Positions 13,305 to 49,420 of a DNA stretch of 64,000 nucleotides are shown here, piece after piece (within the stretch, counting starts at the first letter, position 1; each line of letters opens with the position of its first letter). Made by a program: the position numbers and the translations under genes. A model generated the notes under the pieces. It was given only the letters and a program-made list of their open reading frames with translations, made no database searches and was not told where the DNA came from. Source of the stretch: an uncultured bacterium (GTDB lineage Bacteria; Omnitrophota; Omnitrophia; Omnitrophales; Abzuiibacteriaceae); contig CAYLXA010000004.1 in the NCBI GenBank assembly GCA_964387845.1, positions 32,001-96,000 of the forward strand, read 5' to 3'.

Positions 13305-13441
13305 CTCAGGTATTTTATTTCGCTTCCTTGCGCGCGATGATTTTTAGCCGACATGGCTAGGCAAAAATCATCGTGCTCAGCCTTCGCCGCAAGTTTCAGC
13401 CATTGAAACTTGCGTCTCAAAGGCGCTTCATAAAATACCTG
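13305..13441. repeat. 137 bp element with 14 bp terminal inverted repeats (ctcaggtattttat / ataaaatacctgag), placed immediately after the giant-gene stop. It contains internal hairpins.
   Basis: The inverted repeats at 13305-13318 and 13428-13441 were read directly. Internal hairpins: gcaagtttcag..gaaacttgc and gatgattttt..aaaaatcatc. Confidence 0.5.
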
Positions 13442-13489
13442 AGATGTCAGCGGATCGTTCATGTGCATTGAGCGTGAAGATATGTTGCT

Positions 13490-13610
13490 GAGCGGCGTTG
13501 AGAGAACGAGCGTTAGGGCAACGCGAGTGAACGAGCCGCAGTGAGTAAGGATGATTCTGTTTTGGCCGATCGCCAAGAATCATCCGACGGAGCGTAGCGA
13601 AGCAACTTAT
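13490..13610 (+). ncRNA. Copy A of a three-copy structured intergenic module: gagcggcgt(t/c)gagaga ... gagtgaacgagccgcagtgag ... hairpin ... cgtagcga.
   Basis: Shares conserved blocks with 18078-18230 and 49279-49420. The hairpin at 13550-13584 covaries with the hairpins in the other copies. Confidence 0.4.
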
Positions 13611-13690
13611 CTTCACGCGAGACAGCGTTATGCGAAGCAAATATCTGGGTATGGCGAAGAAAGGGCATTCGATGATAAAATAGCGGCGCT

Positions 13691-14254
13691 ATGGCGAACC
13701 TTCCGATTGTCAAAATTGGACACGCGGTGCTGCGCGAAAAGTGTAAAGACATTCCGGCCGGCGTTTGGGGTCAGTCCCCAAGGGGACTGACCCCGGAACT
13801 TCAGAAATTAATCAAAGACATGGTTGAAACCATGCACAAAAACGAAGGCGTGGGTTTGGCGGCGAATCAAATCGGCAAAAACATTCGGCTGATTGTCCTC
13901 GAATGCAAATCCAGCAAGCGTTACCCGAGCACCGACGATTTTCCGCTCGAAGTCTTCATTAATCCCAAAATTACGCACTATTCTAAGGAAAAAGTGAAGG
14001 GCTGGGAAGGATGCCTCAGCATTCCGGGCTATCGGGGCGTTACGCCGCGTGCCAAATCGGTCACGTTCGAGGCGTTCACACCGGACGGGAAAAAGATAGA
14101 AAAAACCGTCCATGATTTTCATGCGTGCGTCATTCAGCACGAAATCGACCATATCGACGGCTTCTTTTATATGGACCGGATGGAAGATCTTAACCATTGG
14201 ATGCATCTCGAAACGTTTAATGAAATGATAGAAAAACACATTAAGGAAAAATAA
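13691..14254 (+). CDS. def: Peptide deformylase
   Basis: Motifs GVGLAANQIG, EGCLSIPG and HEIDHIDG. Confidence 0.9.
   Translation: MANLPIVKIGHAVLREKCKDIPAGVWGQSPRGLTPELQKLIKDMVETMHKNEGVGLAANQIGKNIRLIVLECKSSKRYPSTDDFPLEVFINPKITHYSKEKVKGWEGCLSIPGYRGVTPRAKSVTFEAFTPDGKKIEKTVHDFHACVIQHEIDHIDGFFYMDRMEDLNHWMHLETFNEMIEKHIKEK
13767..13794. repeat. Perfect 28 bp palindrome (ggggtcagtcccc aa ggggactgacccc) lying in-frame inside def.
   Basis: Read directly. It encodes WGQSPRGLTP, which corresponds to about 8-10 extra residues relative to the canonical Def N-terminal region. Confidence 0.8.
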
Positions 14255-14348
14255 ATTCAAAATTCAGATATCAAATCTCAAAACAAATTCGAATTTCCAA
14301 TATTTCAATATTTAAATTATTTTGAAATTTGAGATTTGAATTTAATAA
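14255..14348. repeat. AT-rich inverted heptad-repeat element (aaattca-type left arm, ttgaatt-type right arm), copy 1 of 4.
   Basis: Left arm aattcaaaattcagatatcaaatctcaaaa, right arm ttttgaaatttgagatttgaattt. It lies between the def stop and the bcp start. Confidence 0.6.
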
Positions 14349-14360
14349 TTCGGAGATCAC

Positions 14361-46328: not shown

Positions 46329-47149
46329 AGCAAAAGAATATCTTGCCCGGCTTTGGGCTTTCGATGGGGTTTACGGTTCTTTATCTTTCGCTGATTGTGT
46401 TGATTCCGCTTTCGATGCTTTTTATTAAGACCGCTACGCTTAACTGGGAAACTTTTTGGCAGGTGATTTCGGCGAAGCGGGTCTTGGCGTCCTATCAATT
46501 AAGTTTCGCCACGGCTTTTGCGGCGGCGCTGCTCAATTCGGTATTTGGTTTTCTGGTCGCTTGGGCTCTGGTTCGGTATTCATTTCCCGGAAAAGATATG
46601 ATCGATGCGCTGGTGGATTTGCCGTTTGCGCTTCCGACGGCCGTAGCCGGCATTTCACTCACGACGGCATATGCGAGCAACGGATGGATCGGAAGGTTCT
46701 TGGAGCCGTTTGGGATCGAAGGCGCTTTTTCCCCGTTTGGGATCGTGATCGCGCTTACCTTCATCAGCCTTCCGTTTGTGGTCCGGACGGTTCAGCCGGT
46801 TCTGCAGGATTTGGATAAAGAGGTAGAGGAGGCGGCCGTGAGTTTGGGCGCTAACCGGTGGCAGATATTGACCAAGATTATTCTACCAACGGTTGTGCCT
46901 GCGCTTTTAACGGGATTTGCCATGGCATTTGCGCGCTCGCTCGGCGAATACGGTTCCGTTGTTTTTATTTCCGGGAACATGCCGTTTAAAACGGAAATTG
47001 CACCGCTTTTAATCATGACCAAACTCGAACAATACGATTATGCGGGCGCTACGGCGATTGCGGTCGTGATGCTTTTGATTTCATTTATTTTGCTGCTGAT
47101 CATTAATTTGCTCCAATGGCAGACGAGAAAGCGATACGGATTGAACTAA
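46325..47149 (+). CDS. cysT: Sulfate ABC transporter permease CysT.
   Basis: Six TM helices. ABC permease EAA-like loop. Operon context. Confidence 0.85.
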
Positions 47150-48033
47150 TGGCACACGTTTTACATGCGCGTCCTTCTCAAGTTTCGAATCATGCGATCA
47201 GCGAACCGCCGGCCGTGCGGTTTATGCTGACTGCAATCGTGTTGCTTTTTCTTGCGCTTTTTTTAGCGGTTCCGCTTGCGGTTGTTTTGGCCTATGCTTT
47301 TCAAAAGGGAATCGGGCTGTATGCGCAATCAATTTTGGAGCCCGATACTTTGAGTGCAATCCGCTTAACGCTTTTAGTAGCCCTGATCAGCGTTCCGATT
47401 AATACAGTTTTTGGTGTTGCGGCGGCCTGGGCAATTGCCAAGTTTGATTTTAGGGGGAAAAATATTCTGCTCACATTGATTGATTTGCCGTTTTCCGTAT
47501 CGCCTGTTATTGCCGGCATGATCTATGCGTTGCTTTTCGGAACGCATAGCTGGCTTGGAAGCTGGCTTTTGGCGCACAATATAAAAATTATCTTCGCAAT
47601 ACCGGGAATTGTGCTGTCGACGCTCTTTGTTACATTTCCGTTTGTCGCGCGCGAGCTGATTCCGCTCATGCAGGCGCAGGGCAATGAAGATGAGGAAGCT
47701 GCGCTGACGCTGGGCGCAAGCGGACTCCAGACATTTTTCCGGATTACGCTTCCGAATATTAAGTGGGGCCTCATTTATGGCGTCATTTTATGCAATGCGC
47801 GTGCGATGGGTGAATTCGGCGCCGTTTCGGTTGTTTCCGGCCATATCCGGGGGCTTACGAATACGATGCCGCTCCATATCGAGATTCTCTACAACGAGTA
47901 TAACTTTACAGCTGCTTTCGCCGTATCATCCTTATTGGTCGCGCTGGCGGTTGTGACTTTGGTGATTAAGCGGCTTGTCGAATGGAAGGCCGTAAAGGAC
48001 GTGAAAGTATCGGGAGAGATTTATGAGTATTGA
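47116..48033 (+). CDS. cysW: Sulfate ABC transporter permease CysW. The true start is probably downstream of the ORF-track start.
   Basis: Permease fold. Operon context. Confidence 0.8.
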
Positions 48034-49087
48034 AATTAAAAATGTAACGAGGGCTTTCGGTGATTTTAAAGCCGTGCGGGATGTGAGTCTTCATATTCCG
48101 ACCGGAGAGCTCGTGGCGCTGATGGGACCCTCGGGATCCGGAAAAACGACCTTGCTCCGGATGATCGCAGGGCTTGAAACGCCGGATTCCGGCAGTGTTT
48201 TATTCCAGGGCAAAGACGCGACGGATCGCCATGTACGGGACCGCAACGTAGGTTTTGTTTTTCAGCATTACGCGCTCTTTAAACATATGACTGTTTTCGA
48301 AAACGTAGCGTTCGGCCTTCGCGTGCGCCCTAAAAAAGTCCGCCCGTCAGATGCCGAGATTAAGAAAAAGGTCGACGAACTTTTAAAGCTCGTGCTGTTG
48401 GAACGCATGGCAAACCGGTATCCGTCACAGCTTTCGGGCGGGCAGCGCCAGCGTGTCGCTTTGGCCCGGGCGCTTGCCGTGGAGCCGAATGTTTTACTGC
48501 TGGATGAGCCGTTTGGCGCGCTGGATGCAAAAGTCCGCAAAGAGCTCAGGCGATGGCTGAGGCGGTTGCACGACAACCTTCACGTGACGAGTGTTTTTGT
48601 GACGCACGATCAGGAAGAAGCGCTTGAAGTGGCGGACCGAGTTGTTGTTATGAATGAAGGGAAAATTGAACAGACCGGTACGCCGGATGACGTGTATCAC
48701 CATCCGGCCAATTCGTTTGTGTATCATTTCTTGGGCCACGTCAATTTATTCCACGGCCGCGTGGAGGGCAATAAGGCTTACGTCGGCGATATGCCGATTG
48801 AACTTCCGAAAAACGCGAAGCCCGATGTCAAATCTGCCAATATTTATGTCCGCCCGCACGAACTGGATATTGATAAGAATCCGGGCCCGAGCAGTTTTCG
48901 GGCCAAGATTGTCTATCTCAATACAGCCGGCAGCGCCGTACAGGTAGAGCTGACGAGCGATGCCGCAGAATCACTGAGCGTGATTATTTCGCACGAACGT
49001 TACCGAGAACTCGCGATCAAAAAAGGCGACGAGGTCTTCATCCGCCCCAAAGACATCAAAACCTTCCCCGAAGATTTCTCTATCTAA
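48023..49087 (+). CDS. cysA: Sulfate ABC transporter ATP-binding protein CysA.
   Basis: Walker [26 protein letters not shown]-terminal TOBE domain. Confidence 0.9.
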
Positions 49088-49253
49088 GCTTTGAAGAAGC
49101 CCTCCGCTCAATGGATTCACCGTGAGAAATCTATTCACTCCGGCATTGGAACACCTTCCGCTCAAAACGTCGCAGTCATCGGCTTTCCAATGCCTCCGCA
49201 CATGATTTCTCTCTCGCGAATCCAATTCGCCTCGGCGCTTCTTCAAGGCTTTT
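49086..49253. mobile_element. MITE-like element, copy 2 (about 168 bp). Same terminal inverted repeats as copy 1, with an internal deletion.
   Basis: aagctttgaagaagc ... gcttcttcaaggcttt. Immediately after the cysA stop. Confidence 0.7.
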
Positions 49254-49278
49254 GGAAATACGGGAAGAACCTCCTATT

Positions 49279-49420
49279 GCGAGAGCGGCGTCGAGAGAAC
49301 GAGCTTCAGGTCGAAGCGAGTGAACGAGCCGCAGTGAGCACGGCAATTTTTGCTTAGCCGGTTGGGCTAAAAATTGTCGGGCGGAACGTAGCGACGCAAT
49401 GGGAGGTTCTGACCGGTGAT
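49279..49420 (+). ncRNA. Copy C of the three-copy structured intergenic module.
   Basis: gagagcggcgtcgagagaacgag ... gagtgaacgagccgcagtgagcacg ... hairpin caatttttgcttagcc..gggctaaaaattg ... cgtagcgacgcaa. Confidence 0.4.

Follow-up and report, generated by a model that had tools for sequence, protein, structure and literature searches.

Bacterial genomes are thought to contain few types of small dispersed repeats (REP/REPIN, ERIC, Correia, BOX and miniature inverted-repeat transposable elements, MITEs), which are recognised by their conserved ends. REP/BIME and REPIN-RAYT sequences of Enterobacteria and Pseudomonas are short, non-coding, palindromic and extragenic, occur in many copies per genome, within operons and in mosaic or clustered arrangements, and are non-autonomous, with single-strand folding, compensatory changes and lineage-specific expansion (PMC3116915, PMC8266576). 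ERIC/IRU, Correia (NEMIS), BOX and RUP repeats are co-transcribed intergenic units of 100-200 nt with long stem-loops, optional internal insertions and modular subtypes (PMC2267715). Both sets of traits are shared by the intergenic modules described here, of which four complete copies and one decayed copy lie in the window (the whole 64-kb stretch analysed, from contig CAYLXA010000004.1 of an uncultured Omnitrophota bacterium) and eight further copies, which bring the total without the decayed one to 12, come from four other Omnitrophota-type genomes or metagenome contigs. The modules are probably non-coding, non-autonomous, duplicative structured repeats of Omnitrophota intergenic spacers, belonging to the broad class of REP/BIME, ERIC, Correia and MITE sequences. 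What distinguishes them is a conserved branched core whose ends are unique to each locus, a trait common to at least two other repeat families found here.

The preliminary description of this stretch had given each module one hairpin. The predicted fold of every copy, and the RNAalifold consensus, is instead a three-way junction, in which a closing stem (P1, or clamp) joins the ends of a core with two arms, the left one variable and the right one conserved. Two subtypes, A and B, differ in the left arm. The copies are listed below, with coordinates that refer to the whole window.

M4, 13294-13454, minus strand: complete copy of subtype B; covariance model score 115.8 bits; predicted fold -69.6 kcal/mol.
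M4 closing stem P1, 13304-13318/13430-13444: perfect over 15 bp, extending to 25 nt at 88% (13294-13318/13430-13454).
M4 core, 13319-13429: the 111 nt between the arms of P1.
M4 right arm (hairpin B), 13329-13379, minus strand: TGAGCACG-ATGATTTTT-GCCT-AGCC...GGCT-AAAAATCAT-CGCGCG.
M1, 13472-13618, plus strand: copy with a subtype A left arm and a variant-2 right arm; 100.3 bits.
M1 parts: P1 13472-13489/13601-13618 (18 nt, 94%); core 13490-13600 (111 nt); left arm ~13492-13539; right arm 13549-13585.
Decayed subtype A copy, 5' remnant, 18066-18093, plus strand: TTTGCGAAAGCGGCGTCGAGAGA, interrupted by M2; includes the first block of the second module of the preliminary description.
M2, 18091-18233, plus strand: copy of subtype B; 130.2 bits.
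M2 parts: P1 18091-18106/18218-18233; core 18107-18217 (111 nt); left-arm hairpin 18117-18153; right arm 18160-18204.
Decayed subtype A copy, 3' remnant, 18234-18282, plus strand: GCTTAAGACCGAAG ... GTGCTTCGCAATGACGG.
M3, 49261-49415, plus strand: copy of subtype A; 118.6 bits; predicted fold -74.3 kcal/mol, against -56.1 kcal/mol for the opposite strand.
M3 parts: P1 49261-49281/49395-49415 (21 nt, 86%, one G·U); core 49282-49394 (113 nt); left arm ~49285-49332; right arm 49338-49382.

The covariance model was built from eight copies. A scan with such a model had been proposed in the preliminary description, and it returned the four window copies at 100-130 bits (E-values of 1e-30 to 1e-40 with filters off) as well as diverged copies in other loci. 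The next full-length match in the window reached 14 bits, the only scores in between, of 15-19 bits, were echoes of the right-arm palindrome on the opposite strand of three copies, and no full copy beyond M1-M4 was found in the window with filters off. The matches to M1-M4 are therefore far above chance.

The core measures 111, 111, 113 and 111 nt in M1 to M4, 112-115 nt in four other copies and 122 nt in L001, unpaired extras included. In two copies it is 132 and 169 nt long, with an extra hairpin at one fixed site on the 3' junction strand, and a one-arm version (L048 1829-1945) has a 79-nt core. Every core starts with (R)AGCG and finishes with AGCGR(N). The right arm consists of GCACG (TGAGCACG), three variable pairs, AUUUUU, a 4-nt GCUU bulge and AGSC-loop-GSCU, and exists in two covarying versions (ATTTTT..AGSC/GSCT..AAAAAT and ATTCT..TGGC/GCCA..AGAAT). 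It is the best-conserved part of the family: copies from the different genomes compared are 87-92% identical there. The nucleotides of the junction do not vary, and its unpaired bases and the GCUU bulge vary little or not at all. The left arm differs in sequence and length between copies, being long in subtype A (M1 and M3; GCGGCGTYGAGAGAACGAG-hairpin-CGAGTGAACGAGCCGC) and of the form GCGCC-hairpin-GGC in subtype B (M2 and M4). P1 closes the core ends with 13-27 bp of sequence specific to the locus. The two arms of one copy can have different relatives, as M1 and M3 are 87% identical in the left arm and 61% in the right arm, which points to recombination or gene conversion between copies.

The ordered blocks that the preliminary description had reported as shared by three modules were all recovered in place, including CGTAGCGAMGCAA and the differing hairpins. 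The block GAGCGGCGTYGAGAGA lies at 13490, 18078 (one mismatch) and 49283, and TGAGCACG...ATTTTTGC lies at 18157 and 49335 and on the minus strand at 13361-13379. What had been read as a fourth, reversed hairpin (13336-13382) is indeed present on the minus strand, as part of the complete copy M4, and the 14-bp terminal repeats noted around it (13305-13441) are real and represent the same kind of closing stem as in the other three copies. The block at 18078, by contrast, had been counted as part of the second module and lies outside the closing stem of M2, belonging to a decayed copy. In this decayed copy TTCGCAAT is complementary to ATTTGCGAA at 18069-18077, and the flanks of M2 (18066-18093 plus 18234-18282) align to M3 with a score of 81, against 57 ± 4 for shuffles. 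Since the block at 18078-18093 is outside the M2 clamp and the M2 flanks align to M3, M2 is an insertion in the left arm of a decayed subtype A copy.

Two modules had also been described, correctly, as directly following MITE copies. This foldback MITE (17851-18046 and 49086-49252; 195 and 167 nt) directly precedes M2 and M3, has a 16-bp terminal repeat AAAGCTTTGAAGAAGC and is 72% self-complementary. Short-read contigs of the same organism (Logan SRR15237813; L040, L044) end at it.

In a MAFFT alignment of eight copies that was not fitted to the model, 22 of the 39 RNAalifold pairs had changed on both sides and 90% of cells could pair, compared with 32-46% of cells in slid-partner controls on the same alignment. 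When 11 copies were aligned to the model, double changes were present at 26 of 39 pairs and 93% of cells paired, and none of 500 shuffles reached any of these measures. The fold is thus maintained by compensatory changes beyond column composition, and over the whole element. It also belongs to one particular strand: non-Watson-Crick cells on the element strand comprise 18 G·U against 5 A·C (p = 0.005), and this strand has the lower folding energy in seven of ten copies. The covariation claimed in the preliminary description therefore stood, and extends beyond the hairpin for which it was proposed. Its interpretation as evidence of a selected structure went further than the data: covariation alone is no proof of a selected RNA, because palindromic DNA can sustain it through single-strand folding or hairpin-templated correction, and related palindromic DNA copies can show compensatory changes without selection on an RNA.

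Core and clamp behaved differently when copies were compared. L001 and L002a, from the same metagenome-assembled genome (MAG), share 110 of 117 core positions (94%), including loops and helices that are variable elsewhere in the family, and 6 of 24 P1 positions, which is the chance level. M3 and L001 are 81% identical in the core and 8% in P1. Among copies with 81-94% identical cores, P1 identity ranged from 8 to 25%, with only the inner ~5 pairs recurring (TTTGC/GCAAA, TTCTC/GAGAA); by eye, the 5' arm of P1 is T-rich in the copies inspected. The site of L002a is empty in a relative with 90% identical LysA, so L002a inserted comparatively recently, and its clamp did not come with the core.

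The clamp also does not seem to have been present at the target before insertion. At two sites that are empty in relatives there is no room for a palindrome, and the perfect clamp of M2 lies at a position where intact subtype A copies have none. Insertion into pre-existing hairpins was considered and set aside, as a search of the window for "empty" AGCG-loop hairpins and long hairpins gave nothing convincing. The idea that clamps or left arms are copies of, or guides to, other places was likewise rejected, since no second occurrence of any P1 arm or left-arm sequence was found anywhere in the sequence examined. The M4 clamp continues imperfectly into sequence resembling the flank of the L042 empty site (TCTGCTRYCC). 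The core thus appears to be what gets copied, with the clamp made or acquired at each site.

Copies outside the window were located by one exact-pattern scan each of a genome collection and a metagenome collection, which gave three and two true matches respectively, and by the covariance model. The small number of exact matches indicates that the family is either rare or too variable for exact patterns.

L001 and L002/L048: copies in the uncultured-bacterium MAG CAYJWM01, whose LysA matches Omnitrophota.
L004/L047: copies in the groundwater Omnitrophota MAG JACQQP01.
L038 and L039: copies in two metagenome contigs.
L038 2340-2477: diverged copy, found by the covariance model, head-to-head with L038 2168-2304.
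L002 703-837 and L047 12049-12249: diverged copies, found by the covariance model.

In the carrier genomes the density of copies ranged from one per 10 kb (L039) to one per 2 kb (L038), while relatives lacked copies over the stretches compared (L041, 20 kb; L042/L043; L045, 22 kb). Abundance is therefore patchy and lineage-specific. A phage or plasmid origin was rejected: three scans of viral contigs gave chance matches in coding sequence only, and blastn of M3 against plasmid records and of M2 against phage records gave no match.

The genes that flank the copies share no function (def, an SpvB-like giant gene, sdhC/sdhA, lysA, dapF/dapA, an MFS transporter, a redoxin, a peptidoglycan-binding protein and a tRNA-binding protein). 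Copies lie inside operons, in the sdhC/sdhA and dapF/dapA spacers and directly upstream of lysA, and several are a few to ~25 nt from the next start codon or immediately follow a stop codon. Ten of the 12 are co-oriented with the gene on their 3' side, including both members of the L038 head-to-head pair, which face divergent genes. M4 runs antisense to the genes on either side, as does L001 to the one neighbour visible, its contig ending just past it.

Comparison with relatives provided three empty sites. The spacer between a giant open reading frame (ORF) and def is 48 nt in L042 and L043 (def 80% identical), compared with 400 nt including M4 and M1 in the window. In L045 (SdhA 88% identical) the sdhA ATG comes immediately after the sdhC TAA, whereas the same junction in L047 measures 407 nt including a copy. 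In the relative whose LysA is 90% identical, lysA is preceded by a 3-nt spacer and overlaps dapF; in L048 a copy precedes lysA and 348 nt of other repeats follow it. In these comparisons the copies are insertions with respect to related genomes. Insertion, nesting, clustering with other repeats and patchy abundance together argue for a dispersed duplicative repeat.

Clamped elements of other kinds were seen at the same loci. A second clamped family, R2 (L047 479-693 and 11778-12024; L038 3170-3299), has a branched core that is 85-90% identical between copies and unique closing stems of 17-20 bp, and lies just upstream of a module in both L047 loci. At L047 11775-12312 an outer 40-nt inverted repeat, a copy of the R2 left edge, encloses R2 and the module. 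In the lysA-dapF-dapA-dapB operon of L048 (MAG CAYJWM01) repeats occupy every junction (1829-1945, 1640-1810, 70-120 and 3943-4210), among them tandem GGGACTATCCCGATCCTATGGAATAAAAAT units and two clamped elements, one of which has a single arm, AGCG...AGCG ends and a clamp of 17-20 bp.

How the modules spread can be outlined as follows. The copied unit would be the core, together with no more than ~5 bp of the inner stem (TTTGC/GCAAA or TTCTC/GAGAA), and it would move through a folded single-stranded intermediate with help in trans, either from an HUH/Y1-type enzyme, as for REP/REPIN, or from replication template switching. The outer clamp would be made at or after insertion, when one flank is copied in inverted orientation by snap-back synthesis or quasi-palindrome template switching, a process known from E. 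coli; the very stable folded core may unite both flanks or prime this synthesis. Because most copies are co-oriented with the adjacent gene, the inserted element is then probably a passive passenger of host transcripts, in which it would form a stable clamped structure and may, as a secondary effect, influence mRNA processing or stability in the manner of REP, ERIC and Correia sequences; secondary effects on mRNA processing are described for ERIC/Correia-type repeats (PMC2267715).

Y1/HUH enzymes are the natural suspects for the helper, as such enzymes exist in the clade. At L041 9091-9883, the orthologous giant-ORF/def spacer, a gene encodes a 199-aa Y1_Tnp protein (IS200-like, RAYT-like); it is bounded by inverted ends of ~45 nt made of GGGGACGGTCCCC palindromes, which are unrelated to the modules and recur after a TPR gene (14010-14065). 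The def gene of the window (13691-14254) carries an in-frame, REP-like perfect 28-nt palindrome (GGGGTCAGTCCCCAAGGGGACTGACCCC) at 13764-13797, which adds six residues (GVWGQSPRGLTP) relative to the 80% identical relative and resembles the GGGGACGGTCCCC repeats around the L041 transposase. No Y1_Tnp gene was found in the window or in the other loci, which are parts of each genome, by tblastn with the L041 Y1 protein or by Pfam, and no transposase, reverse transcriptase, recombinase or integrase was found by Pfam among the larger annotated ORFs of the window and the copy-bearing loci.

Several points weigh against the duplicative-repeat reading. With no mobilising enzyme beside any copy among the larger annotated ORFs, the means of spread is unproven, and the modules have neither the conserved terminal inverted repeats nor the direct target duplications of classical MITEs. 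A right arm that is 87-92% identical between genomes and an invariant junction amount to more conservation than a purely selfish palindrome needs, and are compatible with selection on an RNA or with a site of protein binding. The co-orientation of 10 of 12 copies is more easily explained by transcription than by replication. Gene conversion could in principle homogenise old cores and so mimic a core copied without its clamp, and the mosaic arm relationships (M1/M3, 87% left and 61% right) make it the main alternative for the clamp pattern. Finally, all empty sites come from relatives with only 80-90% protein identity, and the sample comprises only 12 copies.

Within the duplicative-repeat reading we tentatively advance a more specific proposal, which is possible though the odds are against it: that the core is copied and then receives a locus-specific clamp by inverted duplication of one flank ("inverted target duplication"), and that R2 and the one-arm AGCG elements are included in this previously undescribed mode of spread. 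If the clamp is built at insertion, these elements would give direct access to fold-back and template-switch copying in bacteria. Repeat and MITE finders keyed on terminal repeats would miss such elements, and structured-RNA finders would take them for RNA genes. The elements interrupt operons whose genes, in relatives, are closely packed or translationally coupled (sdhC/sdhA, lysA/dapF), and bear on the intergenic expansion of Omnitrophota and on breaks in short-read assemblies.

A serious rival, compatible with the repeat reading, is that the modules are selected cis-acting RNA elements of operon mRNAs, serving, for example, as an entry point for RNase III (in P1), as a barrier to exonucleases or as the place where a protein binds the right arm and junction, with dispersal being secondary. 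The wobble pairs on the element strand, the co-orientation of 10 of 12 copies with the downstream gene (the divergent L038 pair included) and the position of copies between genes of one operon (sdhC/sdhA, dapF/dapA) would all be expected of such an RNA, as would the invariant or nearly invariant junction nucleotides and GCUU bulge together with the conservation of the right arm (87-92%) between genomes. Optional extra hairpins at one fixed junction site are likewise a feature of many structured RNAs. However, relatives lack the element at these operon junctions, their genes abutting or overlapping there, the flanking genes are functionally unrelated, M4 is antisense to both neighbours and L001 to the only one seen, and closing stems of 13-27 perfect pairs far exceed what an RNA usually needs. 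We therefore regard a primary cis-acting role as rather unlikely. A riboswitch or leader was ruled out by the unrelated downstream genes and the antisense position of M4.

The preliminary description had raised the possibility of a small RNA family, taken here as independently transcribed, trans-acting molecules. The structured family and its compensatory changes are real, and a conserved, covarying fold of ~110-150 nt has the typical size of a small RNA. The part of that reading that found no support is the small-RNA genes. No match to a sigma-70-like promoter or an intrinsic terminator was found in or beside M1, M2 and M4 in a scan of 13200-18500, where such matches were no more numerous than in shuffles, although promoters of this phylum may differ from the pattern scanned; the idea that the element itself carries a promoter was dropped on the same scan. 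Furthermore, several copies sit within a few to ~25 nt of a start codon or right after a stop codon, the variable parts are locked in perfect helices that leave no accessible seed, the neighbouring genes are unrelated, and the copies are nested, patchily distributed and polymorphic for insertion. Small-RNA genes are accordingly an improbable explanation.

More improbable still is a new self-cleaving ribozyme, or another catalytic or ligand-binding RNA, carried by the repeat in the way that hammerhead and twister ribozymes occur in repetitive DNA. The three-way junction, with ~25 conserved nucleotides concentrated at it, and a J2/3 strand, CUGAGCA, that by inspection loosely recalls the hammerhead CUGANGA are the features that suggest it, whereas the position of hammerhead G8 is a C, the junction strands of types A and B differ and no Rfam ribozyme model matched even at E = 10. 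Membership of a known RNA family was excluded more generally, there being no Rfam match at the elements, copies of both subtypes included: with Rfam release 15, a gathering-threshold scan of the window returned two tRNAs only, a scan of 13250-13700 at E ≤ 10 returned a single chance microRNA match, and a scan of four copy-bearing loci at E ≤ 0.5 returned nothing at the elements. Least probable of all is an invertible DNA switch with P1 as the inverted repeats of an invertase and a promoter in the core, for although inverted repeats flank a core upstream of genes and two of the 12 copies face the other way, the repeats differ at every locus and so offer no single recombinase site, the internal helices covary for no reason that an inverton would supply, no promoter match fell in M1, M2 or M4, no invertase was found among the larger ORFs nearby, and several copies lie inside housekeeping operons.

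Other features of the window were recorded alongside the modules. The window is otherwise an unremarkable series of housekeeping genes of Omnitrophota-like character, a phylum placement based on what the homologues are called. Its gene content includes the giant ORF, def, ahpC, a TPR protein, the SpvB-like giant gene, histidine kinases, sulfate/phosphate transporters and cell-wall enzymes. The giant ORF (52-13290) continues beyond the left edge and encodes 4412 aa or more; a length of 17,398 aa is called for its L041 counterpart. A tandem series of four paralogous genes for HisKA_7TM histidine kinases occupies 26878-32430 with a spacing of ~1.4 kb. A small gene with 23S_rRNA_IVP/bAvd-like Pfam matches (~39220-39580; L040 1198-1554) adjoins a response regulator, and with no reverse transcriptase nearby it is probably not part of a diversity-generating retroelement. 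Long hairpins of tandem heptamers (16391-16492, 22471-22498, 23343-23430, 39974-40108 and 41468-41539) are built from AGCCACA-type units followed by their complement, AGCCTGA-type units, and from AAGTGGT/ACTTACC, three of them within long ORFs (TPR, SpvB-like). AT-rich hairpins with 7-nt periodicity (AAATTCA AAATTTC ...) directly follow a gene in each of four places (14248-14348, 26360-26467, 40337-40446 and 51132-51234), and this four-copy family looks terminator-like. Hairpins of the form CCCTCTCCC...GGGAGAGGG occur at gene boundaries (15269-15299, 15642-15681, 16204-16289, 28034-28074 and 29463-29502).

Set against the described systems, the modules differ from each in a specific way. REP stems are conserved within a genome, with a GTAG head and simple hairpins of 20-40 nt, in contrast to a branched 111-nt core with a unique outer stem; GTAG was found only in subtype A (CGTAGCGA). 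A RAYT-like Y1 gene accompanied by REPs occurs at the orthologous spacer of L041, and no RAYT was seen adjoining the modules. In ERIC/Correia-type repeats the terminal inverted repeats are retained from copy to copy, and several of these families make TA or other direct target duplications, neither of which holds for the modules. Here the terminal repeats are not conserved between copies (P1, 8-25%), whereas the neighbouring true MITE keeps its 16-bp terminal inverted repeat in both copies, and inspection of M1-M4 revealed no direct target-site duplication flanking P1, the sole direct repeat being the AGCG inside the clamp at both core ends.

Elements derived from IS200/IS605 and associated with palindromes, which are mobilised by Y1 (HUH) transposases, resemble the modules in having two subterminal hairpins but neither terminal inverted repeats nor a target duplication (PMC6006769). 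They are also strand-specific and move by way of folded single-stranded DNA on the lagging-strand template (PMC6006769), and M1-M3 lie on the G-rich strand of the window. In the modules, however, the two arms are unlike each other, the long flanking clamp is foreign to IS200/IS605, and no Y1 gene is linked. Integron attC sites are likewise conserved in structure although their stems differ in most of their sequence. Recognition takes place on the folded single strand, and their terminal structures are variable and sometimes branched. The attC sites differ in their conserved R''/R' outer ends, their arrays of cassette ORFs and their integrase, while the modules are scattered and combine variable ends with a conserved centre; the outer ends of the modules share no motif, where attC requires RYYYAAC and GTTRRRY, and no integrase was present among the ORFs scanned in the window and loci. 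Retron msr-msd regions, too, are clamped at their ends by variable complementary a1/a2 repeats that enclose conserved and variable hairpins, but are single-copy and always adjoin a reverse transcriptase, which none of the 12 module loci, with their housekeeping neighbours, contains.

The family thus behaves like REP/ERIC-type repeats and, by the features that define each, stands apart from MITEs, REP/REPIN, attC sites, retrons and any Rfam family. If inverted target duplication is indeed how its clamps arise, it would represent a repeat class with site-made ends and a conserved centre, the reverse of every known MITE, REP and IS.

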